Of a DNA stretch of 64,000 nt, positions 1,148-64,000 are shown piece by piece. Each line of letters starts with the position of its first letter. Position 1 is the stretch's first letter. Below the pieces are notes generated by a model that worked only from the letters and a program-made list of their open reading frames with translations, was not told where the DNA came from and did no database searches. This stretch comes from a phage. Location: the sequence record PX915677.1. One strand, written 5' to 3'. The translations under genes and the position numbers were made by a program.

Positions 1148-1660
1148 ATGGCAATGCCAGATTTCAGAGGGGCTTTTACATATAACCCAAATACAGGGCA
1201 TCTTTTCTGGTCTATGAGTAACGTATTCAATAAACAGAAAGGGAAACGTGCTGGATGTATTAATAATAAAGGATATCGTGTATTAACCTTCAAGAAGAAA
1301 TCATACCTAGAGCATAAGGTCATAGCTGAACTCTTTCTTCCTAAAGTAGAAGGGAAGGATTATGTCAACCATAAGAATGGAATAAAAGACGATAACAGGA
1401 TTGAGAATCTAGAGTGGTGTACTCAACAAGAAAACTGTACACATGCTTTTGAAACAGGCCTCTCAACACCTAGGAGTCTTGAGGATAACCCTAATTCCAA
1501 ACTCACTAAAGAGCAAGTTCTCTTTTGTTTGGAGAACTACAAACCGAGAGATAGAGAGTTTGGAGCTAGAGCCTTAGCTAGAAAGTTTGGGGTCTCTAAA
1601 AGCACAATATCTCTCATTACTAAAGGCGTAAACTGGAAGGAGGTTTATTATGATGCCTGA
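1148..1660 (+). CDS. HNH homing endonuclease
   Basis: HNH motif ...DYVNHKNGIKDDNRIENLEW...; C-terminal HTH-like region; SD aaggagg; overlaps next gene by 11 nt as expected for an inserted free-standing HEG. Confidence 0.75.
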   Translation: MAMPDFRGAFTYNPNTGHLFWSMSNVFNKQKGKRAGCINNKGYRVLTFKKKSYLEHKVIAELFLPKVEGKDYVNHKNGIKDDNRIENLEWCTQQENCTHAFETGLSTPRSLEDNPNSKLTKEQVLFCLENYKPRDREFGARALARKFGVSKSTISLITKGVNWKEVYYDA

Positions 1661-2399
1661 CGTCCAATACCCCATCAATACCTATGGGTGGCTAAAGAAG
1701 GCCGTGGCCCTCTGGGCAGATAGGGACGATGACGAATTTGTTAATCAAATTCCAAACTTTATTAACTTTGCAGAGAAAGAGATTTATCGTAACTTACGAA
1801 TCCCTCCTCTGGAAAAAGAAGTGTATTTAGATATCAAAGATGGAGTAGCTTATATTCCTCCTGATTACTTAGAAGCTCAATGGATGATGAGAGCCAAAGA
1901 TGGTACAATCTTCCAAGTAACCTCTCCTGAGGAGATTAGCTATCGTAGACAGCATGGAACAATTAATCCATCTCACTGGAATAACCAACCTGTTAACTTT
2001 GCTCGTTTCGGGAGTCGTTTCATTTTCTACCCTAGTATTGAAGCAGATACTCCTGTTTATCCTGATGATGGAAGCCCTTTAATTCCAGCAGAAAACTCAG
2101 TGATTCTTAGCTATTATGCAGACCCACCGGAATTCCACGAAGATACAGATACCAGTGCTATTCTTACTATCGCACCAGAACTTCTTCTGTACTTCACCCT
2201 ACGTCATGCTTGTCTCTTTGTTCAAGATGATAACGGTGTTCAGAAATGGTCAGCATTAGGAAAAGCTATCCTTGATGAAATGGTAGAGCAGAATAAGAAA
2301 CAAGAGTACTCAGGTTCACCTATCGCAATTCCGAATAACATGACTCGGCTTCAGAGCAGCTTGCCTGATATTTATGGTATTCGTACTTCTCGTGTATAA
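1650..2399 (+). CDS. virion structural protein (tail tubular/adaptor-like by position)
   Basis: 249-aa ORF with GGAGG SD immediately after capsid; function inferred only from synteny. Confidence 0.4.
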   Translation: MMPDVQYPINTYGWLKKAVALWADRDDDEFVNQIPNFINFAEKEIYRNLRIPPLEKEVYLDIKDGVAYIPPDYLEAQWMMRAKDGTIFQVTSPEEISYRRQHGTINPSHWNNQPVNFARFGSRFIFYPSIEADTPVYPDDGSPLIPAENSVILSYYADPPEFHEDTDTSAILTIAPELLLYFTLRHACLFVQDDNGVQKWSALGKAILDEMVEQNKKQEYSGSPIAIPNNMTRLQSSLPDIYGIRTSRV

Positions 2400-2408
2400 G
2401 GAGATAAT

Positions 2409-4685
2409 ATGATCGTTTATAATAACCAAGCACCTGATGCAGTGAATAACGTTGGGCAGTTTGGTGCTACTGAAGGCTCTATCGGAGCTTACAAGCAAGC
2501 AGCAGAATATGCAGCTGACTCCAAATATTGGGCACTGCTAGCAGAATCTAAGTTTGGTACAATTGATGATTTAACCGCTGAAGTAGAACGTCTATATCAA
2601 CAGGGTGTTCTGATGAAGCAGGATATTGAAGATCTTAAGCAGGATTTTAAGGATCAAGATGCTCGTTTGATGACTCTGATTGCCCAAACCAACGCAGCAG
2701 TATCGGATGCTAATAATGCCGTTGCTCTCATTAACCAAAAACTTATTGAAGTCCAGAATCAGCTTGATGTTCTGTTAGGAATGTCTGTTGATGTAACAAC
2801 TCTCCCTCCGGGAACTCCGGCTACTGGCTCTTTTAATCCTAACACTGGTGTAATCTCTTTAGGTATTCCAGAAGGTGATCCCGGAAAAGATGGTTCTGTT
2901 AAGGATTTGGATACAGCACCTACAGGTGTTCCAGAGCTAGGTGATTTAGGTTTCTATGTTGACAAAGATGACAATACCGTCCACAAAACTACTCTAGATA
3001 ACATTGCTAACTTAATCCCATCTGTCCGTTCTGTCTCTATTAACGGCGGTCCAGCTCTTGATGGAGAGGTTGCTCTAACGCTTAACAAAGAGACGGTAGG
3101 TTTAGGAAATGTTCTGAACGTTGCTCAGTACAGTCGTCAAGAGATTAATGACAAGTTTGATAAAACCACCAAGACATATCAATCTAAAGCAGAAGCTGAT
3201 GCTGACGCTCAATATCGTCAAGTTGGAGAGAAAGTCTTAGTTTGGGAAGCTACTAAGTATGAGTTCTACACTGTTGCTGCTAACAAAACATTAACTCCTG
3301 TTAAAACTGAAGGTAGAATTCTTACTGTTAATTCCCGTTCTCCAGACTCCAGTGGTAATATTGACATTACCATTCCAACAGGAAACCCTTCTCTATATCT
3401 TGGTGAGATGGTAATGTTCCCTTATGACCCAACAAAGAATATCTCCTATCCGGGCGTTCTTCCAGCCGATGGTCGTCTAGTGTCTAAAGAGTCTGCTTCA
3501 GATTTAGGCCCATCCCTTGTCAGTGGACAACTTCCTGTTGTTTCTGAAACTGAATGGCAAGCAGGGGCTAAACAATACTTCTCTTGGGGTAAATTGGCAG
3601 ATGGTATTACCGATGCAGATTCTACTAATTTTATCAACATTCGACTTCCTGATTGGACTGGAGGGGAGGCAATAAGAGCACCAGATTCTGATAAAGACTC
3701 TCAGTACAATGGGTCTGTACAGGCTCAGAAACCTTATGTTGTTACTGTAAATAACCAAGCTCCTGATGAGATTACTGGTAATGTGAACATCTCCAGATCA
3801 ATTTTAGGTGCTGCCGCTTCTGGTACAAACTCTGATATAACATCCCTCACGGGACTCACTACAGCACTGTCTGTCACACAAGGAGGCACTGGAGCTAAAA
3901 ATGCTGCTAGTGCTCGTTCTAATCTAGGGTTGGGAAGTGTTTCTACTCTGGATAATGTACCTATTGCTAATGGTGGGACAGGGGCTGGAGATGCTGCTGG
4001 TGCAAGGTTCAATATTGGAGCGCTAAGTAACACCCCAGCAAATTCAGGCGTAGGTGGTACTGGGGATCGTGTCCAACATGCCTCCGGGAACGGCCTGTTT
4101 ACTTTAGACTTGTTTAACTGCTACTGGTATATGCAGCCAGAGGATACTAACTTCTGGATTGCCCACGGTGTGTCATATGCAGGGTCTGGTGGCGAAGCCT
4201 CACAATACGGTCGCATATCTTACGCAATAAAGATTGCAGACGGAACAATAAAATATGTCCATTGTCTTACAAACAAAAACACCACTGTTGATGTAAACGG
4301 ATTTATCAAAGCGGCATCTCCGGTAGTTCATATTTACTCCGACGGTCGATATGAGACGAACGAGGAATCTGAGGGGGTTAATGTCATTCGGCAAGGTGTT
4401 GGTGAGTACTTGATTACCGGTTGCCTTGGCTTAAACGCAGATGCAAAATGGGGAGGCATTGACGGCGGCTTTGAAATCCCTACTGACCGCAACAAACAAC
4501 CTAGGGTTTGGCTGGACTATGAGATTAAAGAAGATGGTTCTATTTTAGTTAAAACCTATCACAGAACCCATCCAACCTCTCCGGTTTTTGCTAGAAATGA
4601 GATAGAAGGTTTTTCTGACGGTGATCCTATTGATATCCCGAGTGATGCTTTTATTTCAGTTCGTGTTGAAATGCCTTCTGAGTAA
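2409..4685 (+). CDS. tail fiber protein
   Basis: N-terminal coiled coil; repeated GGTGA..AAxARxNLGLG-type motifs (TQGGTGAKNAASARSNLGLGSV, ANGGTGAGDAAGARFNIGA) typical of phage tail fibers. Confidence 0.6.
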   Translation: MIVYNNQAPDAVNNVGQFGATEGSIGAYKQAAEYAADSKYWALLAESKFGTIDDLTAEVERLYQQGVLMKQDIEDLKQDFKDQDARLMTLIAQTNAAVSDANNAVALINQKLIEVQNQLDVLLGMSVDVTTLPPGTPATGSFNPNTGVISLGIPEGDPGKDGSVKDLDTAPTGVPELGDLGFYVDKDDNTVHKTTLDNIANLIPSVRSVSINGGPALDGEVALTLNKETVGLGNVLNVAQYSRQEINDKFDKTTKTYQSKAEADADAQYRQVGEKVLVWEATKYEFYTVAANKTLTPVKTEGRILTVNSRSPDSSGNIDITIPTGNPSLYLGEMVMFPYDPTKNISYPGVLPADGRLVSKESASDLGPSLVSGQLPVVSETEWQAGAKQYFSWGKLADGITDADSTNFINIRLPDWTGGEAIRAPDSDKDSQYNGSVQAQKPYVVTVNNQAPDEITGNVNISRSILGAAASGTNSDITSLTGLTTALSVTQGGTGAKNAASARSNLGLGSVSTLDNVPIANGGTGAGDAAGARFNIGALSNTPANSGVGGTGDRVQHASGNGLFTLDLFNCYWYMQPEDTNFWIAHGVSYAGSGGEASQYGRISYAIKIADGTIKYVHCLTNKNTTVDVNGFIKAASPVVHIYSDGRYETNEESEGVNVIRQGVGEYLITGCLGLNADAKWGGIDGGFEIPTDRNKQPRVWLDYEIKEDGSILVKTYHRTHPTSPVFARNEIEGFSDGDPIDIPSDAFISVRVEMPSE

Positions 4686-8581: not shown

Positions 8582-11500
8582 ATGGCGCTGTATCCAATAA
8601 AGTCACTAGGTGCTGTAGGCGTTATCGCTGACCAAGCTCCGACAGACTTAGCTCCTAATGCTTTCACTAATGCTATAAATGCTCGATTTGTTGAGCAGAG
8701 AGTATTTAAGACGGGGGGCAATGCCCCTCTTTCTTATGTAGATGAAGATAAGGATTTAACCCCTCTGTCTTTCGTTTCTATGCCTTTCGATTATTATAGC
8801 GCAGGTAATAGCTTTCTTGTTGTAGGTACTAATAAGAAGTTATATAAACTGACAGATGAAAGCTTGACTGATATTAGCCGTAAGGTTGCTACAGTCACTA
8901 AGAAGGCTTCTGCCTCAATTAAGATTTATCCAGTTGTTTCTCAGATCGTTCCTAAAGAATCAACTATCTCAATGAACTTCAATCAGACCAAGAATCTAGA
9001 GGTTTCTCTTCTCCCTGCTGATGCTAACAATACCGATCTTATTTGGGAGGTTAGTAACTCATCCTATGGAAGTATTACGGTAGACCCTAGTGACTCTAAA
9101 CTTGCTACTCTAACATCTTTTGAGAAAGAGGGTAATCTTGTAGTAACTATCTCTACTGCCAATGAATCCGTAGTGGCTCAGATTGCTGTTAATATCATCG
9201 ATGGTGATTCAGGCATCTTCTTGAGTCAAGATACTGTTACAATTCGTAAAGGAGGGACTACTACTCTCACGGCTGTTACTGGTAAAACTCCTGTAACTTG
9301 GTCCAGCAATAATGCTTCTATTGTATCCGTAACCCCTAACGCCAACTCTTTAACTGCTGTCATCACAGCGAACGGAGAAGGTAATGTAACAATCACTGCT
9401 GATAACGGGACTAAGACTGCTTCTTGTGAGATTGTTTCTATCCCTCAGATTGATAGTATCTCTTTAAGCCAGTCAGATGTTACTGTGAGTAGAGGTTCTC
9501 AGTATATCTTAACTGCTACCCTTTCTCCTGCTAACGCCCCTAATCAAAATATTACTTGGACCTCTTCTAACCCAAATATTGCAACAGTATCAGGGACTAG
9601 CACACAAGGGACGATCAACGCTCTGCTTGCTGGTTTTACTGAGATTACAGCTACCACTGAAGAAGGTAACAGAGTTGCTGTCTGTACTGTACGTGTGGAT
9701 TTAGCTGGAAGGACAATGAGAACAAGTGCTATGGCATTTGCCGCTCCTGTGTCAGAGTCAGTAGAAACTCAAGAGGAAGAAGTAGTAACTCCTCCTGAAA
9801 GTGAAGAGACGGTTTATTTTGCTGAGCCTACATCCGGTATTGATACGTCAGGGATGTATGAAGGTAACAACTTCTATGACTACTCTAACGTGAATGATAT
9901 TGAAGGTTTTGCAAGAGCTTCTTTACTGGCAACCCCTTTGTCATCTGTAACCTTAGATATTGTCAGCGCTTCTCTTGATGTTGGTGAAGAGATTGTCATT
10001 ACAGCCACAGCTTCTCCAGAAGGTGAGTACTCTTATCAGTGGTCTGTTGATAAAACTGGTTATGTTTCTACAACTTCAGTTACTGGTAAATCTATCAAAC
10101 TGGTTGCTCTTCGTAAAGGAGAGATTAACGTAACATGTACTGTCAGTCAGATGACTCAGAAAGATTACGATGCTTTTGATGACTATCCTTGGTATCACGC
10201 TGTTATCTCTAACTGTGCAGTTGCTACAACTCACTATGAAACTCCTCAGGTAAAAGAATTCGAATCAGAATACTTTGTAGATCTTCCGGGATGGGGTGAG
10301 CAAACAGTTGTTGATAATGACGGAAACCCTTCAGTCAAGAAGTTTAACTGGAAATGTGAGAGAGTAAGATCTTTTAACAACCGTCTTTTTGCTCTGAATA
10401 TGAGAGAGGCTAATGCTTCTGGTGTTACCACTAACTACCCGCTTCGTCTTCGTTGGTCTAACTTTGCCAATGAGAACAAGGCTCCTACACTGTGGGATGA
10501 CTTTGCCTATGATCGAGTTGTGTCTTCGGACTTAGCTTCTAACATCGTAGGGCAGACTCAGGCTCTAGAGAATGGGTATGCTGGTTACATTGACTTAGCA
10601 GATTCTAATGGTAGCTTGATTGATATCCTACCTCTTAAGGATTACTTGTTCGTTTATACAGAGTTTGAAACGTATATTGGTTCTCCGACTAATAACACGT
10701 ACCAACCTCTAATGTTCAAGAAGCTCTTTAACGACTCTGGTATCCTTGCTCCCGAGTGTGTGGTTGAAGTAGAAGGTAGTCACTTCGTAGTTACTCAGAA
10801 CGATGTAATCTTACACAACGGTGCAACTAAGAAGTCAATTGCATCTAACCGTGTCAAGAACATGCTGATTAACGAGGTGTGTCTGGTTAATCCTTTAGCA
10901 ACTCGAGTACACTTGCATCAGGATAAGAAAGAAGTTTGGGTTCTCTATGTAGGACCGGGGGAGCCAAAAGAAAGCTTCGCTTGTACTAAAGCTGCTGTAT
11001 GGAATTACGAGTTTGATACTTGGTCTTTCCGTACTATCCCATATGCTCAGTGTATTGGTCTGGTTGATCCTCCTGTTTTAGAAAGAGGTCCAATCTGGTC
11101 TGACTTCCAAGAAATCACTTGGGATGACCCATCTATTAAAGAACTCGTTTGGAGAAAGGATGCAACAAACTTTAGACAGAGGGTTACGATAGTAGGTTCA
11201 TTCTTGAAGGGATTCTATCAGGTGGATGTAGGCGCTCTTGATTATTTCTATGACAGGCTAAATGATGTTGTTATAGAGAAGCCTCTGGAAATGAGGTTGG
11301 AGAGGACTGGTATAGATTTTGATAATGTGACGAATGAGTGGAATCAGAAGCATATTAATAGATTCCGACCTCAGACAACTGGTTCAGGTACTTACATATT
11401 TGAAGCTGGTGGTAGTCAATTCTCAAATGAATATGGACACCCACACACATCTAAGACATATACGATCGGTGTTGACAGGCATGTCTCGGTGAGACTGAAC

Positions 11501-11599
11501 CATCCATACCTTTTCTATAATGTTATAGATAATGATGTTAACAGTAATGCTGCTATCAATGGTTTAACGATAGAGTTTGCTGTTGGCGGGCGGAGATAA
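8582..11599 (+). CDS. large tail fiber/spike-like protein with multiple Ig-like (Big_2) repeats
   Basis: 1005 aa; at least four repeats of the pattern ...SxxxVtVxxGxtxxLTAtxxPxxAxNxxxxWxSSNxxxAtV...; SD aaggagg. Confidence 0.55.
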   Translation: MALYPIKSLGAVGVIADQAPTDLAPNAFTNAINARFVEQRVFKTGGNAPLSYVDEDKDLTPLSFVSMPFDYYSAGNSFLVVGTNKKLYKLTDESLTDISRKVATVTKKASASIKIYPVVSQIVPKESTISMNFNQTKNLEVSLLPADANNTDLIWEVSNSSYGSITVDPSDSKLATLTSFEKEGNLVVTISTANESVVAQIAVNIIDGDSGIFLSQDTVTIRKGGTTTLTAVTGKTPVTWSSNNASIVSVTPNANSLTAVITANGEGNVTITADNGTKTASCEIVSIPQIDSISLSQSDVTVSRGSQYILTATLSPANAPNQNITWTSSNPNIATVSGTSTQGTINALLAGFTEITATTEEGNRVAVCTVRVDLAGRTMRTSAMAFAAPVSESVETQEEEVVTPPESEETVYFAEPTSGIDTSGMYEGNNFYDYSNVNDIEGFARASLLATPLSSVTLDIVSASLDVGEEIVITATASPEGEYSYQWSVDKTGYVSTTSVTGKSIKLVALRKGEINVTCTVSQMTQKDYDAFDDYPWYHAVISNCAVATTHYETPQVKEFESEYFVDLPGWGEQTVVDNDGNPSVKKFNWKCERVRSFNNRLFALNMREANASGVTTNYPLRLRWSNFANENKAPTLWDDFAYDRVVSSDLASNIVGQTQALENGYAGYIDLADSNGSLIDILPLKDYLFVYTEFETYIGSPTNNTYQPLMFKKLFNDSGILAPECVVEVEGSHFVVTQNDVILHNGATKKSIASNRVKNMLINEVCLVNPLATRVHLHQDKKEVWVLYVGPGEPKESFACTKAAVWNYEFDTWSFRTIPYAQCIGLVDPPVLERGPIWSDFQEITWDDPSIKELVWRKDATNFRQRVTIVGSFLKGFYQVDVGALDYFYDRLNDVVIEKPLEMRLERTGIDFDNVTNEWNQKHINRFRPQTTGSGTYIFEAGGSQFSNEYGHPHTSKTYTIGVDRHVSVRLNHPYLFYNVIDNDVNSNAAINGLTIEFAVGGRR

Positions 11600-11605
11600 C
11601 AACAA

Positions 11606-11632
11606 GGGGCTTCGTGCCCCTTTTATTGTTTT
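11606..11632 (+). terminator. rho-independent terminator
   Basis: ggggc-ttcgt-gcccc stem followed by TTTTATTGTTTT. Confidence 0.7.
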
Positions 11633-11642
11633 GGAGGAACTT

Positions 11643-12611
11643 ATGGGTGCAGGTGGTTTTCGTAAGAACACTGGTCGCAACAACACCACACTCCCGTACA
11701 ACGTTGGGTTTCTCAATAATGTACAGGACACAGAAACATATAACGTAGCCGTATATGATGAGCTACAAAAAGTCAGTACAGCTACTAACCAAATGTTCCA
11801 AGCTATTGATGAGATTCACGATGAGATTGATGTTCGTATCAAAGCTCTCCATGCGATGAACTTACAATTTGATGAGCTTGAGAATAGAATTACTACAGAG
11901 ATAGAGACAGCTATTGCCGATATCCAAACACAGATGGGGAATCTCTCCACTGAAGATATTTGGGATAATTCTGTTCAACCTCCTGTGAAATTAGAAAGCA
12001 CTGTATCTGGTTTTAAAACAAGTATTGAAGGTAACACAACCAAGATTCAAACGGTAGAAGGTATTGTCAACGATCAAGGTCAAGAGATTGCTTTTGTTCA
12101 GACAGAGATTCAAAATATTAATGGAAGCCTATCTCAGTATATGAAGCTCTCTGAGTATGAAGCTACGTGGGGTGTTAACTCTACAGTCAACGGAAGATAT
12201 GCTGGGGTCAAGTTAACTAACAACGGAACAAACAGCCAATTCCAAGTAACAGCTAACAAATTTATTGTTGGTGATGGCAACTCTGGTAATACTCCCTTCG
12301 TGTTTGAAGGTGGGCGAGCTAGGATGGAATTCGCTGATATAAAGAACGTCAATATCACAACAGCTCAGATTGCTAACGCTAGAATCCAATGGGCACAGAT
12401 TGATAACGTATCCATCTCCAACGCCCAGATTCAGAACTTATCAGCGGATAAAATCACTGCTGGTTCTATGTGGGGTTCTAACTGGAGACTAACTGTTGGT
12501 GGTGACTTTGTTATGGGTGGTACAGGTGGGGCGCAGTTGTGGATGAATGGTAACAGAATCGACTTCTACGATGGAAGTGGTGCTCTGAGAATTAGAATAG
12601 GGAGTTGGTAA
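11643..12611 (+). CDS. virion structural protein (coiled-coil, fiber-like)
   Basis: ATG 11643 with GGAGG SD preferred over the listed 11577 start, which overlaps the terminator; coiled-coil N-half, NISNAQIQN-type repeats. Confidence 0.5.
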   Translation: MGAGGFRKNTGRNNTTLPYNVGFLNNVQDTETYNVAVYDELQKVSTATNQMFQAIDEIHDEIDVRIKALHAMNLQFDELENRITTEIETAIADIQTQMGNLSTEDIWDNSVQPPVKLESTVSGFKTSIEGNTTKIQTVEGIVNDQGQEIAFVQTEIQNINGSLSQYMKLSEYEATWGVNSTVNGRYAGVKLTNNGTNSQFQVTANKFIVGDGNSGNTPFVFEGGRARMEFADIKNVNITTAQIANARIQWAQIDNVSISNAQIQNLSADKITAGSMWGSNWRLTVGGDFVMGGTGGAQLWMNGNRIDFYDGSGALRIRIGSW

Positions 12612-29391: not shown

Positions 29392-29400
29392 TATACATTA
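29392..29400 (-). promoter_or_regulatory. candidate phage-specific promoter element TAATGTATA (minus strand)
   Basis: 59 nt upstream of SSB-like gene start 29332. Confidence 0.4.
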
Positions 29401-55753: not shown

Positions 55754-55772
55754 ATTTCCTCTCGTTGAATTT

Positions 55773-55797
55773 AAAAAAGGACTCTCCGAAAAGAGTC
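55773..55797 (-). terminator. terminator-like hairpin (minus strand)
   Basis: gactct/agagtc stem followed by U6 on minus strand. Confidence 0.3.
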
Positions 55798-55952
55798 AAG
55801 CTTTAAATACAAAAAGATATTACCCAATATCTGTGGATAACCTGCTCTTAAAATATCTATCCGACGGATGTTCGAGGAATGTTCCTCTCCCTAGCATCGG
55901 CCCCATACGGGAAATATATTAAGATTAGGTTAGTTGAGTCAGAATAACTCAC

Positions 55953-55974
55953 ATAGCCCTCCGAAGAAGGCTAT
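55953..55974 (-). other. conserved stable hairpin element (copy 1)
   Basis: Minus-strand RNA AUAGCCUUC-UUCG-GAGGGCUAU just after a stop codon; shares the 13-mer CTCACATAGCCCT (plus) with 61132-61144. Confidence 0.4.
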
Positions 55975-55988
55975 AGGCGTTACTACAA

Positions 55989-57166: not shown

Positions 57167-57414
57167 TATGTATTATCCACCAAAAGTTCTGCCGATACAG
57201 GGACAACTCGGCACCAGATAGAAGGGGCTGTTACGTTACCATCAGATAGACGAAGAGTGATTGCTCGATCGGAGTTAACGGTTACATTAGGACTTTCAGA
57301 CACAGACCCTTTGACATAGAGAGTAGAACTCTCAGGGAATTTAAATACTGCTCCACTAGGAAGAGAGTTGATATCAACCGTGGACACTTCTTCTTTCTTG
57401 TGAGTAATCTTCAT
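57166..57414 (-). CDS. small protein, expanded paralog family
   Basis: MKITHKKEEVSTVDINSLPSGAVFKF... Confidence 0.4.
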   Translation of the reverse strand: MKITHKKEEVSTVDINSLPSGAVFKFPESSTLYVKGSVSESPNVTVNSDRAITLRLSDGNVTAPSIWCRVVPVSAELLVDNT

Positions 57415-57422
57415 ATTGATTC

Positions 57423-57734
57423 CTATTTAAGTTTGAGGCTAATATTAAGGTGCATACATGCCCTGTTCTGTACAGCAGCATAACTTCTACCAAGCATGTC
57501 AGCCATTCTCTGAATAGACATAAACCCGGCATTACGGATAAGGAACTGATCTTCTTCTTTAGACCACTTGACTCGGATTGAAGCTCTTGATATTCCGAAT
57601 TTAGTGCAAGCTGTGTTAACAGCATTCTCCGTTACATTCATAATCTGAGCAACTTCTTGAACCGAGTACTCTTTGATCAGTCTCCGAAGATTTTCAATCT
57701 GCATCGGAGTCCATATAGTTCTTCGTGCTTTCAT
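57423..57734 (-). CDS. HTH DNA-binding protein (putative transcription regulator)
   Basis: Two helix-turn-helix-like repeats (QIENLRRLIKEYSVQEVAQIMNVTENAV / EEDQFLIRNAGFMSIQRMADMLGRSYAAV). Confidence 0.4.
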   Translation of the reverse strand: MKARRTIWTPMQIENLRRLIKEYSVQEVAQIMNVTENAVNTACTKFGISRASIRVKWSKEEDQFLIRNAGFMSIQRMADMLGRSYAAVQNRACMHLNISLKLK

Positions 57735-58024
57735 ACATCCTCCAATTAAACGTTTATATAAGACTTGCTTAGATAAAGATTCAATAAAATAGGGGGAGGG
57801 GACGAATCCTCCCTTATCCTATTAGTTAATATTGCATGTAAGATCTAACAATCGGTTGCCTTTGTAGGAATAAGCGTTATGCTAATCCAGCACTAAACTC
57901 CCGCCCCCTTAGTGGGCTGGGTTATTAAAGGGTAACGCCCTTATGGGCTAGTTACATGAATGTTAGTTTGATAGGAGATCTGAAGTCCTATCTCAAAGGA
58001 CTCTCGTAAGAATCCTTCACGATA

Positions 58025-58282
58025 TTACTTAAAGATAAAATGAATAACTGCATCATATGCTTTAAACAGAAGCCAACCTATTGGATAAAAAACTCCTGAC
58101 AGTATTGAGATAGGCCACAACACAATTAAGAGAACAACCATCATCTCATCAGGTTCAGAGCTGGTAGACCCTGTTGTAATGACCCCTTTTAGTAGACCTT
58201 TCTTGTATAGCAGTTTCATCACTAAGACAGAAAGGAATACTCCAATAAAGTAAACTGAGATAAAAATATCAAGTAAACCCAT
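58025..58282 (-). CDS. small multi-TM membrane protein
   Basis: 85 aa with hydrophobic segments FISVYFIGVFLSVLV and VVLLIVLWPISILSGVF. Confidence 0.4.
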   Translation of the reverse strand: MGLLDIFISVYFIGVFLSVLVMKLLYKKGLLKGVITTGSTSSEPDEMMVVLLIVLWPISILSGVFYPIGWLLFKAYDAVIHFIFK

Positions 58283-58434
58283 TTAATCGTCTCTTACTTG
58301 TTCAACTTTCGTCGGCTATCTCTCCAAGCCAACCAAGTGTAGGTTTTCAGTTCTTCAAAGTCTTCTGGAGAGAATAGATAATCTTTGAAGGTGTTCCCAA
58401 ACCACTCTAAAAATTCTTCAGTCATAAGATTCTC

Positions 58435-58608
58435 TTAACAAGATTGGTCACACGGCTGATCACCACATGTTTTACAGATCACTGGTGAGTAACTACAGGC
58501 AGGATAAACAGACACCCCATCAAACGTCTCACATCCACAATCAGGACATGTACCGTTGGATTCCATGTCATCATCGTCATCTACTTCACCGCCACCAAAA
58601 CAACTCAT
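58435..58608 (-). CDS. small Cys-rich protein (57 aa)
   Basis: MSCFGGGEVDDDDDMESNGTCPDCGCETFDG...CKTCGDQPCDQSC; SD aaggag; not in ORF track. Confidence 0.35.
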   Translation of the reverse strand: MSCFGGGEVDDDDDMESNGTCPDCGCETFDGVSVYPACSYSPVICKTCGDQPCDQSC

Positions 58609-59487: not shown

Positions 59488-59563
59488 TGGTGCGCCCTAC
59501 AGGACTCGAACCTGTAACCAATAGCTTAGAAGGCTACTGCTCTATCCATTGAGCTAAGAGCGC
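59488..59563 (-). tRNA. tRNA-Arg (anticodon TCT)
   Basis: Hand-folded cloverleaf: acceptor GCGCTCT/AGGGCGC, D-arm GCTC-AATGGAT-AGAGC, anticodon loop CTTCTAA, T-arm ACAGG-TTCGAGT-CCTGT, encoded CCA. Confidence 0.8.
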
Positions 59564-59571
59564 AGAATTAT

Positions 59572-59736
59572 TTAGATCATATCTCGCTTGGTGATATGAC
59601 CACATGTTTTACATCGAAGTATATAACGAGTACCTGTGTCTTCTATTTGACCAATCTCATTATATATGTGTAAACGAATTTCTTTTATTGTCTCCCAATC
59701 ATGGAGATGGAAGAAACGTTTAAACCACTTGAACAT
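59572..59736 (-). CDS. hypothetical small CxxC protein
   Basis: Internal start MFKWFKRFFHLHDWE...; ends ..RCKTCGHITKRDMI. Confidence 0.25.
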   Translation of the reverse strand: MFKWFKRFFHLHDWETIKEIRLHIYNEIGQIEDTGTRYILRCKTCGHITKRDMI

Positions 59737-59743
59737 AATAACC

Positions 59744-59995
59744 TCAAGCACAAGCAGGGAGAGTGATGATTTTATGCTTACCGTCAAACTCTCCAAACAA
59801 ACCCAAGAATGTAGGACTGTAAGTTCCAGTGCAAACAAACTCATCAAACAATGCGTTATAGCTAGGCTTAATCTTCCAAGCCCATACATAACCCATCTTA
59901 TCGATTGCAATGTAACGAGTGTTCAGAGGAACAGTCATCATCACATCGTCAACTTCGATCACTTTAGTTATTGGTGCAGCTTGAAAGTTTTTCAT
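59744..59995 (-). CDS. hypothetical protein
   Basis: 83-aa ORF. Confidence 0.35.
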   Translation of the reverse strand: MKNFQAAPITKVIEVDDVMMTVPLNTRYIAIDKMGYVWAWKIKPSYNALFDEFVCTGTYSPTFLGLFGEFDGKHKIITLPACA

Positions 59996-60225
59996 TACAT
60001 TTCCTCTAATTTAAGAGTTGCTTTATACTCTGTAACTGGAACGTGCCCAGCGAATGAAAGCTTATGGGCAGGATGTGATAAATTTACAGAAAAACCTCCC
60101 CCAATCTTCATGTAGAACTTCTTTTTGTCCCAAGATGGGCACTCATCAAGTGAGAAGATTGATCCAACGCTCAAACCTCGGAAAGTCTTTTGGTCTGTTT
60201 TAGTTGAGCCTAGAATGATATTCAT
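59995..60225 (-). CDS. small protein, expanded paralog family
   Basis: FRGLSVGSIFSLDE...FSVNLSH; ATGA coupling with upstream small ORF. Confidence 0.4.
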   Translation of the reverse strand: MNIILGSTKTDQKTFRGLSVGSIFSLDECPSWDKKKFYMKIGGGFSVNLSHPAHKLSFAGHVPVTEYKATLKLEEM

Positions 60226-60398
60226 ACTTTACCTTTAATGAAAATGTCATTACCACAGACACAGCATGAACGAACAACAGTAGCGCCACGCTGAACGATA
60301 CGAACCTCTTCCTTAACCAGATTGACACGAGCGCCGCAGCAAGGAGAGTTGACATAAGAGTAACCAGCTTGAGTATTCTTGATTGTTTGATTAGACAT
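60222..60398 (-). CDS. small Cys-rich zinc-ribbon protein (58 aa)
   Basis: MSNQTIKNTQAGYSYVNSPCCGARVNLV...RSCCVCGNDIF; SD gaggaag; not in ORF track. Confidence 0.35.
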   Translation of the reverse strand: MSNQTIKNTQAGYSYVNSPCCGARVNLVKEEVRIVQRGATVVRSCCVCGNDIFIKGKV

Positions 60399-60442: not shown

Positions 60443-60471
60443 AAAACAACAAAGGCCGCCTTCGGGCAGCC
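60443..60471 (-). terminator. rho-independent terminator (minus strand)
   Basis: ggcugcc-cgaa-ggcggcc stem (G-U pair valid on minus strand only) followed by UUUGUUGUUUU. Confidence 0.6.
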
Positions 60472-60476
60472 TCTCT

Positions 60477-60728
60477 TTATTGACTCACACCACGAATCAG
60501 ATGATTCTGTAGCGTCCCGTCTTCTGCATTATACAGGAATGCAAACATCAATTCTTTAGCCACATCTCTTGAACAATTAAGACACTTAGAGATTTGCGTT
60601 AGTTGCATGTTGCGTTCTGTGTGTTCCATCAAGGCAATGCGAATGATTTCTCGCATACCTATTACATGAACTGTTTTAACCGGCATAGGTCCAATTGCCT
60701 TGCTTGTTACGAATGGCTGACATTGCAT
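60477..60728 (-). CDS. hypothetical protein
   Basis: 83-aa ORF; start ambiguous (alternative ATG at 60686); overlapping 45-aa ORF 60676..60816 also possible. Confidence 0.3.
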   Translation of the reverse strand: MQCQPFVTSKAIGPMPVKTVHVIGMREIIRIALMEHTERNMQLTQISKCLNCSRDVAKELMFAFLYNAEDGTLQNHLIRGVSQ

Positions 60729-61136
60729 GAATCCAGAAGCCTTCCAGTTTCAGAGCACCATTAGCTACTGCATCCATACGTTCAGGGCGGTTCATACGTT
60801 TGGTTGATACTTTCATACCTATCTCTCTTTGTTAGTGGAGGCATTATTGCCAGTTGATATAAGGGATAGCCCTAGTCAGTAGACTAATCCTGACCGCGTA
60901 CTCATTGCCGACCTTCTCTGCCTAAGAGTTCAGGTTCTAGAGCTATCTCTTATCCCAACTGGTGAAGACTCCCTACCCCTAGGAAGTCTCCTGAATCCCA
61001 AACCAATACGTACCCCTACATATCAGAAAGTCTTTCGAAAATTAACAGGTTTTAGTCTAACACCGGATGTTCGAGCAAGCTCTCCCTAGCGGTGTGGCAT
61101 ATGCCTGAATTAATAAGTTAATGAGGAACACCCTCA

Positions 61137-61164
61137 CATAGCCCTCTGATAAACACAAGGGCTA
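61137..61164 (-). other. conserved stable hairpin element (copy 2)
   Basis: atagccct/agggctat 8-bp perfect stem with 12-nt loop just after stop of 61175..61393; preceded by the shared 13-mer. Confidence 0.4.
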
Positions 61165-61174
61165 TAAGTCGGTG

Positions 61175-63341: not shown

Positions 63342-64000
63342 TTACCACTCGTAACTTACACCAGCGCCCAGAACAGCGTCACTCTCTGAAGTCATTGCCA
63401 CTGATGCTTTAGTTACTACGTTTTCATTGAAACGAGCACTAACACCAATAGCAAGAGCAGATTCACCATCGTAAGCACCTACCCCAGCACCAACAGAGAA
63501 AGCAGATCCTTGACTTACTTGCGGGATGTTAGCCATTGCAGCCACGCCAGAAATACCAGCAGAGGCATGATCACGGTTACGGTCTACTTGTTTTTGCAAA
63601 GAAGCAAAACGTTTATTGGTGGATTGTTCCAGAGCTTTGATGGATTTGGCGTTAGCATTAACGGCAGACATATCTGCATCTTTACCATTTTTGCCATTTA
63701 ATCCGTCAACGCCATTCAAACCTGCTGCACCAGTTAGGCCAGTTTCGCCTCTCTTACCATCTGCACCAGAATCACCTTTTTCACCTTGAGCGCCTTGTTC
63801 TCCATCAATGCCATCTTTACCATCAATGCCATCTTTACCATCAATGCCATCTTTACCATCAATGCCATCTTTACCATCAATGCCATCTTTACCATCAATG
63901 CCATCTTTACCATCAATGCCATCTTTACCATCAATGCCATCTTTACCATCAATGCCATCTTTACCATCAATGCCATCTTTACCATCAATGCCATCTTTAC
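63342..64000 (-). CDS. collagen-like repeat protein with YadA-anchor-like C-terminal domain (5' partial, continues beyond window)
   Basis: Frame of listed ORF 63342..63719 stays open upstream through uninterrupted Gly-X-Y triplets (GET GLT GAA ... then (GKDGID)n); C-terminus GVAAMANIPQ...GAGVSYEW resembles trimeric autotransporter anchor. Confidence 0.55.
   Translation of the reverse strand, partial: KDGIDGKDGIDGKDGIDGKDGIDGKDGIDGKDGIDGKDGIDGKDGIDGKDGIDGKDGIDGKDGIDGEQGAQGEKGDSGADGKRGETGLTGAAGLNGVDGLNGKNGKDADMSAVNANAKSIKALEQSTNKRFASLQKQVDRNRDHASAGISGVAAMANIPQVSQGSAFSVGAGVGAYDGESALAIGVSARFNENVVTKASVAMTSESDAVLGAGVSYEW
63802..64000. repeat. perfect 18-bp tandem repeat array, at least 10 copies, truncated by window end
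   Basis: Unit ccatctttaccatcaatg repeated head-to-tail from 63811; encodes (GKDGID)n on the minus strand. Confidence 0.9.

Follow-up and report, generated by a model that had tools for sequence, protein, structure and literature searches.

The question raised by this locus is what occupies the stretches without open reading frames (ORFs) that interrupt the otherwise tightly packed early region of the phage of sequence record PX915677.1, of which 64,000 nucleotides (nt) were analysed (the window). A sequence-only reading of the window had proposed that two such stretches, one at 57735-58024 immediately upstream of a helix-turn-helix (HTH) regulator gene (gap 1) and one some three kilobases further along (gap 2), may hold early promoters or small RNAs. 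In this study, we find that gap 1 carries a conserved element of ~245 nt, here called module A, which appears to fold as RNA on the transcribed minus strand, and for which a part in punctuating the early transcript is the reading that we favour with moderate confidence. By sequence comparison the window is that of a phiEco32-like podophage of the Gordonclarkvirinae, genus Kuravirus, a coliphage; over the 900 bases around gap 1, identity is 99.9% with Escherichia phages EK5, phiEc_1 and Ec3-ASingh, and 96-97% with NJ01, KBNP1711, SU10-type and BASEL Kuraviruses. Between ~54 and 63 kb every ORF lies on the minus strand, including all genes flanking the gaps, and comparison with phage SU10 identifies this region as the early gene cluster.

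Conservation and covariation of module A

Gap 1 is indeed ORF-free and next to the HTH gene, as the sequence-only reading had stated: there is no ORF of at least 20 amino acids (aa) within 57793-57987, and the three listed ORFs only clip its edges. A small protein-coding gene was rejected on this ground, together with indels that are not multiples of three and stem substitutions that are compensatory. The inverted repeat GATAGGA/TCCTATC that had been singled out is exact and lies at 57970-57976 and 57986-57992, so that its former limits, 57971-57995, were off by 1-3 nt. This repeat is the stem of H2, the second of the hairpins that, with a multibranch domain closed by helix P1, a conserved 15-mer and a 3' hairpin, H6, make up module A (Table 1).

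A sensitive BLAST search with the 290 bases of gap 1 found homologues in 133 phage records, nearly all Kuraviruses among them. N4-like Gamaleyaviruses (G7C, PhAPEC5/7, Bp4, pSb-1 and others) also match at 75-84% identity, sharing three blocks of gap 1; their copy falls between gp47-like and gp48-like genes, in a non-coding region of 1.2-1.7 kb that also bears tRNAs, and it is oriented with respect to the genes as in Kuravirus. Pattern scans added metagenomic copies and a far more diverged copy in Salmonella phage 7-11. Scans of metagenomes and GTDB genomes with 15- or 16-mers gave only chance matches outside known phages, and so did a degenerate H6 pattern in IMG/VR.

The pairing of module A was evaluated on an alignment of 37 distinct sequences from Kuravirus, Suseptimavirus, Salmonella phage 7-11 and Gamaleyavirus. 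The structure was defined by hand, because the variable hairpins cannot be aligned by sequence and RNAalifold, applied to the mixed alignment as a whole, therefore predicted a long-range helix that was in part spurious. In this structure 94.2% of the cells are paired, versus 45-63% when the 3' partners are slid, and nine pairs are changed on both sides, versus at most three when slid; none of 500 shuffles matched the observed values. Covarying pairs, which the sequence-only reading had proposed to look for, were thus found in module A, and they were found in the gap 2 modules as well. At the level of comparative sequence analysis these results bear out the idea of structured RNAs, in that both gaps appear to hold conserved, covarying folds on the transcribed strand.

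The individual helices differ in how much they contribute to this signal. In H1, 17 sequences have A-U at pair 8-21 and three have G-C there (Salmonella phage PKM.Hi.22.6 and two of 7-11 type), and pair 9-20 is a U.G wobble in 19 sequences; one position of this helix alternates among A-U, G.U and G-C. H2 has 99.2% of its cells paired around a largely conserved loop, and its stem occurs in three versions, GAUAGGA/UCCUAUC, GAUAAGG/CCUUAUC and GUUGAGG/CCUUGAC. The P1 pairing CUAAC/GUUAG is invariant in all 37 sequences, and unconstrained minimum free energy folding recovers it in 11 of 12 representatives. The hairpins inside the multibranch domain change from group to group, with GUAAC..GUUAC in the window, GCUCAA/UUGAGC in the TH34-type and Gamaleyavirus sequences and GUCACC-GAAA-GGUGAC in 7-11. 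The 15-mer GUUAGAUCUUACAUG is invariant across homologues save for position 6 (A or G), and is kept even in 7-11, which retains the architecture of module A with different stems. In the inner stem of H6 an A-U pair is replaced by C-G in PKM.Hi.22.6, and the 7-11 type has GGCGG/CCGCC in place of GGGAGG/CCUCCC, the 7-11 stem having been compared by eye. A pseudoknot between AGAU of the H2 loop and RUCU after P1 could pair in 95.9% of cells; its columns barely vary, so that this signal is indistinguishable from that of shuffles.

Folding energies alone say little about the strand. The z-score of gap 1 against shuffled controls is -3.05 on the minus strand and -3.28 on the plus strand, and since the plus strand folds equally well this score cannot choose between the two. 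The U.G wobble in H1 would be an A.C mismatch on the opposite strand, so that the strand that folds is the transcribed minus strand. Conservation and covariation are stronger evidence than folding z-scores are.

Edges and 3' end of module A

In most Kuravirus records similarity to the window breaks off at 58024-58031, which marks the 5' edge of module A, and SU10-type Kuraviruses and Gamaleyaviruses lose it at 57788, directly past H6. What follows H6 varies widely. The window and phiEco32 have a U-tract, a weak promoter-like string and a Shine-Dalgarno (SD) sequence; in SU10 and NC-B the place is taken by a further RNA module; 7-11 and PKM.Hi.22.6 have a gene start 14-20 nt on; and in Gamaleyavirus either an RNA module or a tRNA comes next, with a tRNA ~9 nt on in ShWW44, Bp4 and pSb-1. 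Because the sequence after H6 differs between phages in this way, the conserved unit is the RNA fold and not a promoter. Phages of the window/phiEco32 subgroup keep terminator, promoter-like string and SD as one conserved block, and the following gene differs.

H6 itself was picked out by a scan for intrinsic terminators (site 57813-57794) as a G+C-rich stem-loop with the tail CCTATTTTAT, and when its outer stem AUAGG/CCUAU is counted the U-tract UUUAUUGA directly abuts it. Such terminator-like sequence is confined to the last ~45 nt of module A. The U-tract is good in window/phiEco32-type phages, PKM.Hi.22.6 and 7-11, and degenerate where an RNA module or tRNA comes next.

A further non-coding element, module C, adjoins module A on its 3' side in Gamaleyavirus and SU10/NC-B-type Kuraviruses and is absent from the window. 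It has matches in Ackermannviridae, in Klebsiella and T1-like siphophages, in 7-11 and in the P22-like phage HK620, in which it is placed after pR'/qut and before the late terminator; its Rfam matches are weak and tmRNA-like (E 0.003-0.2). Pieces of the RNA island of PhAPEC7 are common to 516 phage records.

Promoters in the early region

The sequence-only reading had also suggested early promoters in the gaps and had pointed to a sigma-70-like string on the minus strand just upstream of the HTH gene. The string exists (TTGAAT at 57784-57779, then 17 nt and TTATAT at 57761-57756). As a sigma-70 promoter it finds little support, with seven of 12 consensus positions and, in the -10 hexamer, no A at position 2, where this base is conserved. 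A consensus scan for TTGACA/TATAAT-like hexamers spaced by 16-18 nt, in which at least nine of 12 matches were required, returned zero sites in gap 1 or gap 2 and did not report this string; over 55-64 kb it found 10 sites versus 22.1 +/- 5.6 in shuffles, that is, fewer than chance. The string is conserved only in the window/phiEco32 subgroup and does not belong to the conserved part of module A.

It has been reported that SU10 has four early promoters, each of which carries a perfect TTGACA, with one upstream of coding sequence CDS125 and three in the 1.8-kb CDS120|121 spacer, in an arrangement that the SU10 paper describes as 'like phage phiEco32', and the 7-11 paper places four early promoters where the phiEco32 early cluster begins (PMC8948821, PMC4281155); the phiEco32 positions used here are second-hand, from these two papers. 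Gaps 1 and 2 correspond to SU10 CDS99|100 and CDS110|111, several kilobases downstream of the SU10 early promoters. Early promoters within the gaps are thus not supported, those of SU10 being located elsewhere. In the window phage, the HTH gene may nevertheless have a restart promoter of low strength. The SU10 CDS120/CDS121 spacer (10562-12507 of the SU10 stretch), which lies outside the window, is ORF-free and carries a terminator in addition to its three early promoters.

The motif TAATGTATA (tAATGTAtA) of the phage sigma factor gp36 has no match with at most one mismatch in gap 1 or gap 2. Exact copies occur elsewhere in the window, at 1106, 18161 and 29464 on the plus strand and at 29392 and 35956 on the minus strand, and the count allowing one mismatch is not above chance; some of the exact copies may be middle or late promoters of the kind described for phiEco32 and SU10.

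Modules in gaps 2 and 3 and searches for known families

The second ORF-free stretch also exists, with limits wider than the 60841-61136 first given (Table 1); inside it, there is only a 33-aa ORF with a TTG start, at 61057-61158. Of the 89 pairs predicted in gap 2, 13 are changed on both sides when six Kuravirus variants are compared. Over its first ~165 nt, gap 2 is paralogous to a third ORF-free gap (gap 3), with an alignment score of 83 versus 31 +/- 5 for shuffled sequences and a 17-mer in common, and we refer to this unit as module B. Homology between modules A and B was rejected, their alignment score (38 versus 30 +/- 5) being not above shuffles. Module B also makes up the 5' portion of the element in Gamaleyavirus. 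A copy is present in 7-11 too, and the annotation of that phage has a terminator at the end of the module. Its core consists of a GCC-GUAU-GGC-type hairpin and a 6-bp helix around the invariant unpaired GCUAGGG...CAUCC; 96.6% of cells are paired, versus 28-42% in slid controls, and four of the six pairs of the 6-bp helix are changed on both sides.

Gap 2 also holds a long irregular hairpin with seven pairs changed on both sides and three versions of the stem. A helix of the length typical of RNase III sites (~20 bp, about two helical turns) is predicted for this hairpin only; the gap 1 helices, all of at most 9 bp, are too short for RNase III. The apical ~65-nt insert is an indel, absent from NJ01- and ECBP2-type Kuraviruses and from two metagenomic variants. 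It is ~80% identical to the nutL-to-N leader of the P22-like phages BTP1, ST104, L and ST64T, in which it likewise caps a long stem and the homology starts downstream of boxB. A search for boxA (YGCTCTTTA) gave no boxA-like match in 60817-61174 or 57735-58024, and the nut-site test thus failed. An N-like antiterminator downstream of gap 2 was rejected, since the 46-aa product there has no similarity to BTP1 N and no Pfam match.

Searches for known RNA families were negative in the gaps. With Rfam 15 only tRNA-Arg (matched at 59491-59563) reaches the gathering threshold over the window and nothing does so in the gaps, relaxed Rfam searches of the three gaps gave only chance-level matches (DdR16, CssrA and EF0605, E at least 0.6), and tRNA and tmRNA searches had no match in the gaps. 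A riboswitch as module A was rejected on the 80-122 nt spread of the P1-enclosed domain, with hairpins gained or lost, and on unrelated downstream genes. The gap RNA modules appear to be undescribed, as there is no Rfam family for them and no mention was found in the literature examined.

Proposed role and alternative explanations

We consider that module A is most likely a cis-acting element of transcript punctuation, involved in 3'-end formation or attenuation, in stabilisation or processing, and serving as a gene-shuffling junction, a view in which our confidence is moderate. Conservation, structure, strand, modular horizontal distribution, the terminator-like 3' end and the absence from Rfam are observations, from which we infer that the modules may act in termination, stability, processing or recombination. 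Module A would be transcribed on the minus strand within a long sigma-70-driven early transcript, and for the gene that ends at 58025 it would in effect be a 3' untranslated region (UTR) or a spacer between cistrons. H6, and likewise the hairpin at 55797-55780, would halt or attenuate part of early transcription, the structured 3' end would be nuclease-resistant, and a stable ~245-nt RNA would possibly be released. Downstream genes would then be expressed via read-through, possibly helped in the window phage by the weak restart promoter, and the conserved module sequence would double as a junction for swapping neighbouring small early genes between phages. Gap 2 would be built alike from other modules, with a second covarying module and the ~22-bp hairpin as an RNase III-type site. 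According to the 7-11 paper, the early genes of that phage are expressed as long polycistronic transcripts from far-upstream promoters by an undefined read-through or antitermination strategy, and such a strategy fits an early operon interrupted by terminator-like hairpins.

Several points weigh against this proposal. Termination, RNA stability and processing are all read from sequence. The U-tract is degenerate in SU10-type phages and Gamaleyavirus, and in 7-11 and PKM.Hi.22.6 a gene begins very soon after H6, so that efficient termination cannot be the conserved or universal function. P1 never varies and so yields no covariation, and most double changes separate just three or four clades, which implies few independent events. 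Moreover, a 240-nt multi-helix fold with an invariant 15-mer far exceeds what a terminator or stabiliser needs and suggests that the RNA has a specific partner.

The size of the fold and its single-stranded 15-mer make a trans-acting RNA and a regulated attenuator live alternatives to transcript punctuation. It is possible, though on balance doubtful, that module A gives rise to a trans-acting non-coding RNA, released by termination at H6 in Kuravirus or by RNase P cleavage at the downstream tRNA in some Gamaleyaviruses, and acting on a host or phage partner either by base-pairing via GUUAGAUCUUACAUG or as a protein decoy or sponge. The 15-mer, predicted to be single-stranded past its P1 strand, stays invariant (position 6 apart, which is A or G) even though 7-11 has changed most of its stems, and the module is kept across phages with unrelated transcription machinery. 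In 3'-UTR-derived enterobacterial small RNAs a conserved single-stranded region stands beside the terminator hairpin, a layout that module A resembles. Two stable RNAs of the T4 tRNA gene cluster, C and D (species 1 and 2), are structured and have no assigned function, and the Gamaleyavirus module, in an RNA island with tRNAs and presumably co-transcribed with them, recalls these RNAs; no sequence similarity to T4-like phages was detected. On the other hand, the complement of the 15-mer is not found in the window above chance, exact matches in bacterial genomes and metagenomes are uninformative, and the module has no conserved promoter of its own, the sequences upstream varying among phages. 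Regulated attenuation, riboswitch-like or protein-responsive, in which the P1-closed domain is the sensor and H6 the expression platform that sets early read-through, is in our view unlikely. The architecture would fit, with a P1-closed conserved junction, conserved unpaired nucleotides, a short linker and then a terminator hairpin, as in riboswitch attenuators; the module-B core has its invariant unpaired GCUAGGG/CAUCC between strongly covarying helices, several terminator-like hairpins lie within one operon (60474-60451, 57813-57794 and 55797-55780, all three internal to it), and the 7-11 paper leaves the read-through or antitermination strategy to be defined. However, the supposed sensor is the least conserved part, with whole hairpins gained or lost, and the downstream genes (HTH regulator, ORFs without assigned role, RNA modules, tRNA) have no common function. 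No conserved antiterminator pairing was found, the linker candidate CUAAU being absent from Gamaleyavirus and 7-11, and the Rfam riboswitch search gave no match.

It has also to be considered whether the conserved unit is DNA rather than RNA, namely a terminator/promoter cassette that is a recombination hotspot shuffling small early genes, RNA mattering only via the terminator. Promoter-early stem-loop (PeSL) cassettes of T4-type phages have been described as small composite terminator/promoter sequences that mediate exchange (PMC4122927, PMC2839356). Module A is like them in that a terminator stem-loop, with a weak sigma-70-like string in one subgroup, stands amid small early ORFs that vary, with homology breakpoints at the module edges that suggest shuffling; the terminator/promoter-like/SD block of the window/phiEco32 subgroup is kept while the next gene differs, and the ~65-nt indel of gap 2 is common to P22-like phages. 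Nevertheless, we regard such a DNA-level element as improbable. PeSLs are small and highly repeated per genome, whereas module A has ~245 nt and five conserved helices, and the 64 kb hold a single copy of it and two of module B; its promoter half is weak, dispensable and specific to a subgroup rather than conserved across the family. The compensatory changes in H1, H2 and the module-B helices lie far from the terminator and argue for selection on folding itself. The least credible explanation, which we think very improbable, is that the gaps are internal early promoter regions whose hairpins are incidental or operator-like sites for the HTH regulator. TTGAAT-N17-TTATAT does stand 22 nt upstream of the HTH ATG, ahead of the SD, and the SU7 record has a predicted promoter at the corresponding place; against this, the string is a poor match, lacking the -10 A and passed over by the scan in a region where promoter-like sites are under-represented, and the SU10 early promoters are strong TTGACA types that lie elsewhere. 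It is also missing from most homologues, the conserved part is the 240 nt upstream of it, and gap 2 has no promoter-like site whatever. A broader conjecture, which we put forward only tentatively, is that the gaps are part of an undescribed pool of horizontally mobile aptamer-like RNA domains, coupled to terminator hairpins, that circulates among unrelated enterobacterial phages (Kuravirus, 7-11-like phages, Gamaleyavirus and P22-like N/late leaders). These domains would be regulated attenuators that set how far long early transcripts are read through, as the antitermination strategy left undefined for 7-11, or released RNAs binding a host factor via GUUAGAUCUUACAUG.

Comparison with known systems

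Module A works most like a terminator-containing intercistronic module and is a member of no catalogued RNA family. Like intrinsic terminators, it has a G+C-rich hairpin and a U-rich tract at H6, and the gap 3 copy of module B ends in a textbook terminator. It differs from them in that, of a 245-nt fold, no more than the final ~45 nt are terminator, and in that the U-tract is degenerate in many homologues, with genes or tRNAs right after it. RNase III processing hairpins are known from phage early transcripts, such as the T7 early R sites and the lambda N-leader. The gaps resemble these in that a long early transcript made by the host polymerase would contain structured RNA in a leader or between cistrons, with the ~22-bp hairpin of gap 2 as the candidate; they are unlike them in the 5-9 bp helices of gap 1, in the lack of boxA/boxB in gap 2 and in a downstream protein unrelated to N.

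Neighbouring features of the early region

The 85-aa hydrophobic ORF at the 5' edge of module A gave zero matches in Pfam and PHROG searches and is fully covered in only nine of 108 related phage records, and only nine of the 108 cover at least 80% of the 57400-58300 query that contains it (compare EcoN5). The terminator-like hairpin at 60451-60474 is placed in a short gap between ORFs 60477-60728 and 60222-60398 of the early operon. Next to tRNA-Arg, the related phage Bas91 has a gene for a homing endonuclease, and the window has ORF 59572-59910 there instead. An 18-nt direct repeat, AT(C/G)ACCACATGTTTTACA, is found at 58459-58476 and 59596-59613 within the cysteine-rich small ORFs 58435-58608 and 59572-59910, and on the coding strand it yields a CKTCG motif common to both, which may be paralogous zinc-ribbon-like early proteins. 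At 63342-63994 on the minus strand there is a collagen-like triplet repeat, of which 'MALMVK' repeats are the out-of-frame reading, followed by an ORF beginning NGVDGLNGKNGKD; this is unusual for an otherwise early region.

Table 1. Positions of module A, the related modules and neighbouring features in the window (module C: positions in the stretches of other phages)
Feature	Position	Strand	Description
Module A, whole element, ~245 nt	57781..58024	-	from just past the stop codon of ORF 58025-58282 to the U-tract
H1 hairpin	57996..58017	-	AAGGAUUCU-UACG-AGAGUCCUU, 9 bp
H2 hairpin	57970..57992	-	GAUAGGA-CUUCAGAUC-UCCUAUC
P1, 5' strand	57962..57966	-	CUAAC; pairs with GUUAG 57849-57845
Variable multibranch domain	57850..57961	-	enclosed by P1; 80-122 nt, 2-4 hairpins among homologues
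Conserved 15-mer	57835..57849	-	GUUAGAUCUUACAUG; first 5 nt are the P1 3' strand, remainder predicted single-stranded
H6, 3' hairpin	57789..57822	-	AUAGG-AUAA-GGGAGG-AUUCGUCC-CCUCCC-C-CCUAU; inverted repeats
U-rich tract	57781..57788	-	UUUAUUGA; directly 3' of H6
Sigma-70-like string	57756..57784	-	TTGAAT-N17-TTATAT; weak, 7/12
HTH gene, 103 aa	57423-57734	-	Pfam Sigma70_r4_2 E 1.6e-7; PHROG 323 'D5-like regulator' E 1e-28
HTH gene start and SD	ATG 57734-57732; SD 57739-57743	-	SD GGAGG
Hydrophobic ORF, 85 aa	58025-58282	-	inserted at module A 5' edge
Gap 2, composite non-coding RNA region	60817..61174	-	folding z -3.30
5' hairpin of gap 2 module B copy	61137..61166	-	UAUAGCCC...GGGCUAUG; 17-mer in common with gap 3
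Module-B core in gap 2	61060..61105	-	GGC-AUAU-GCC hairpin, then ACACCG/CGGUGU helix around GCUAGGG-hairpin-AACAUC
Gap 2 hairpin	60964..60992	-	AGGAGACUUCC-UAGGGGUA-GGGAGUCUUC; conserved CUAGGGGUAG loop; compensatory changes in ECBP2, phiEco32
Long irregular hairpin, ~22 bp	60851..60961	-	CAGUUGGGAUAAGAGAUAGCUCUAG / CUAGGGCUAUCCCUUAUAUCAACUG; candidate RNase III-type site
Apical insert of long hairpin, ~65 nt	60873..60939	-	
Gap 3, full module B	55754..55988	-	folding z -3.98; third ORF-free gap
Gap 3 terminator-like hairpin	55797-55780	-	GACUCUUUUCGGAGAGUC then CUUUUUU; strong, ends module B
Terminator-like hairpin	60451-60474	-	AGAGGCUGCC-CGAA-GGCGGCCUUU then GUUGUUUUAA; 10 bp, G+C-rich
tRNA-Arg	59488-59563	-	anticodon TCT; Rfam 72.4 bits
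Module C, PhAPEC7	2235-2476		stretch-relative
Module C, SU10	~1384-1500		stretch-relative
Module C, HK620	1201-1318		stretch-relative
Module C, phage C1	1201-1293		stretch-relative

Significance

Kuraviruses and Gamaleyaviruses are common Escherichia coli phages and are present in model collections such as BASEL, and in the records inspected the gap stretches have no RNA annotation and at most an occasional short hypothetical ORF. The modules are common to phages with different transcription machinery, host polymerase with a phage sigma factor on one side and phage-encoded polymerases on the other, and they are candidates for how long early transcripts get punctuated, stabilised and read through. 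Moreover, they expose a non-coding layer that moves between phages independently of genes. The gap RNAs are small and well delimited. Should they prove not to be regulated or trans-acting, they would still provide a useful annotation and a marker of recombination junctions, and if they are regulated or trans-acting, they would represent a new class of phage RNA.

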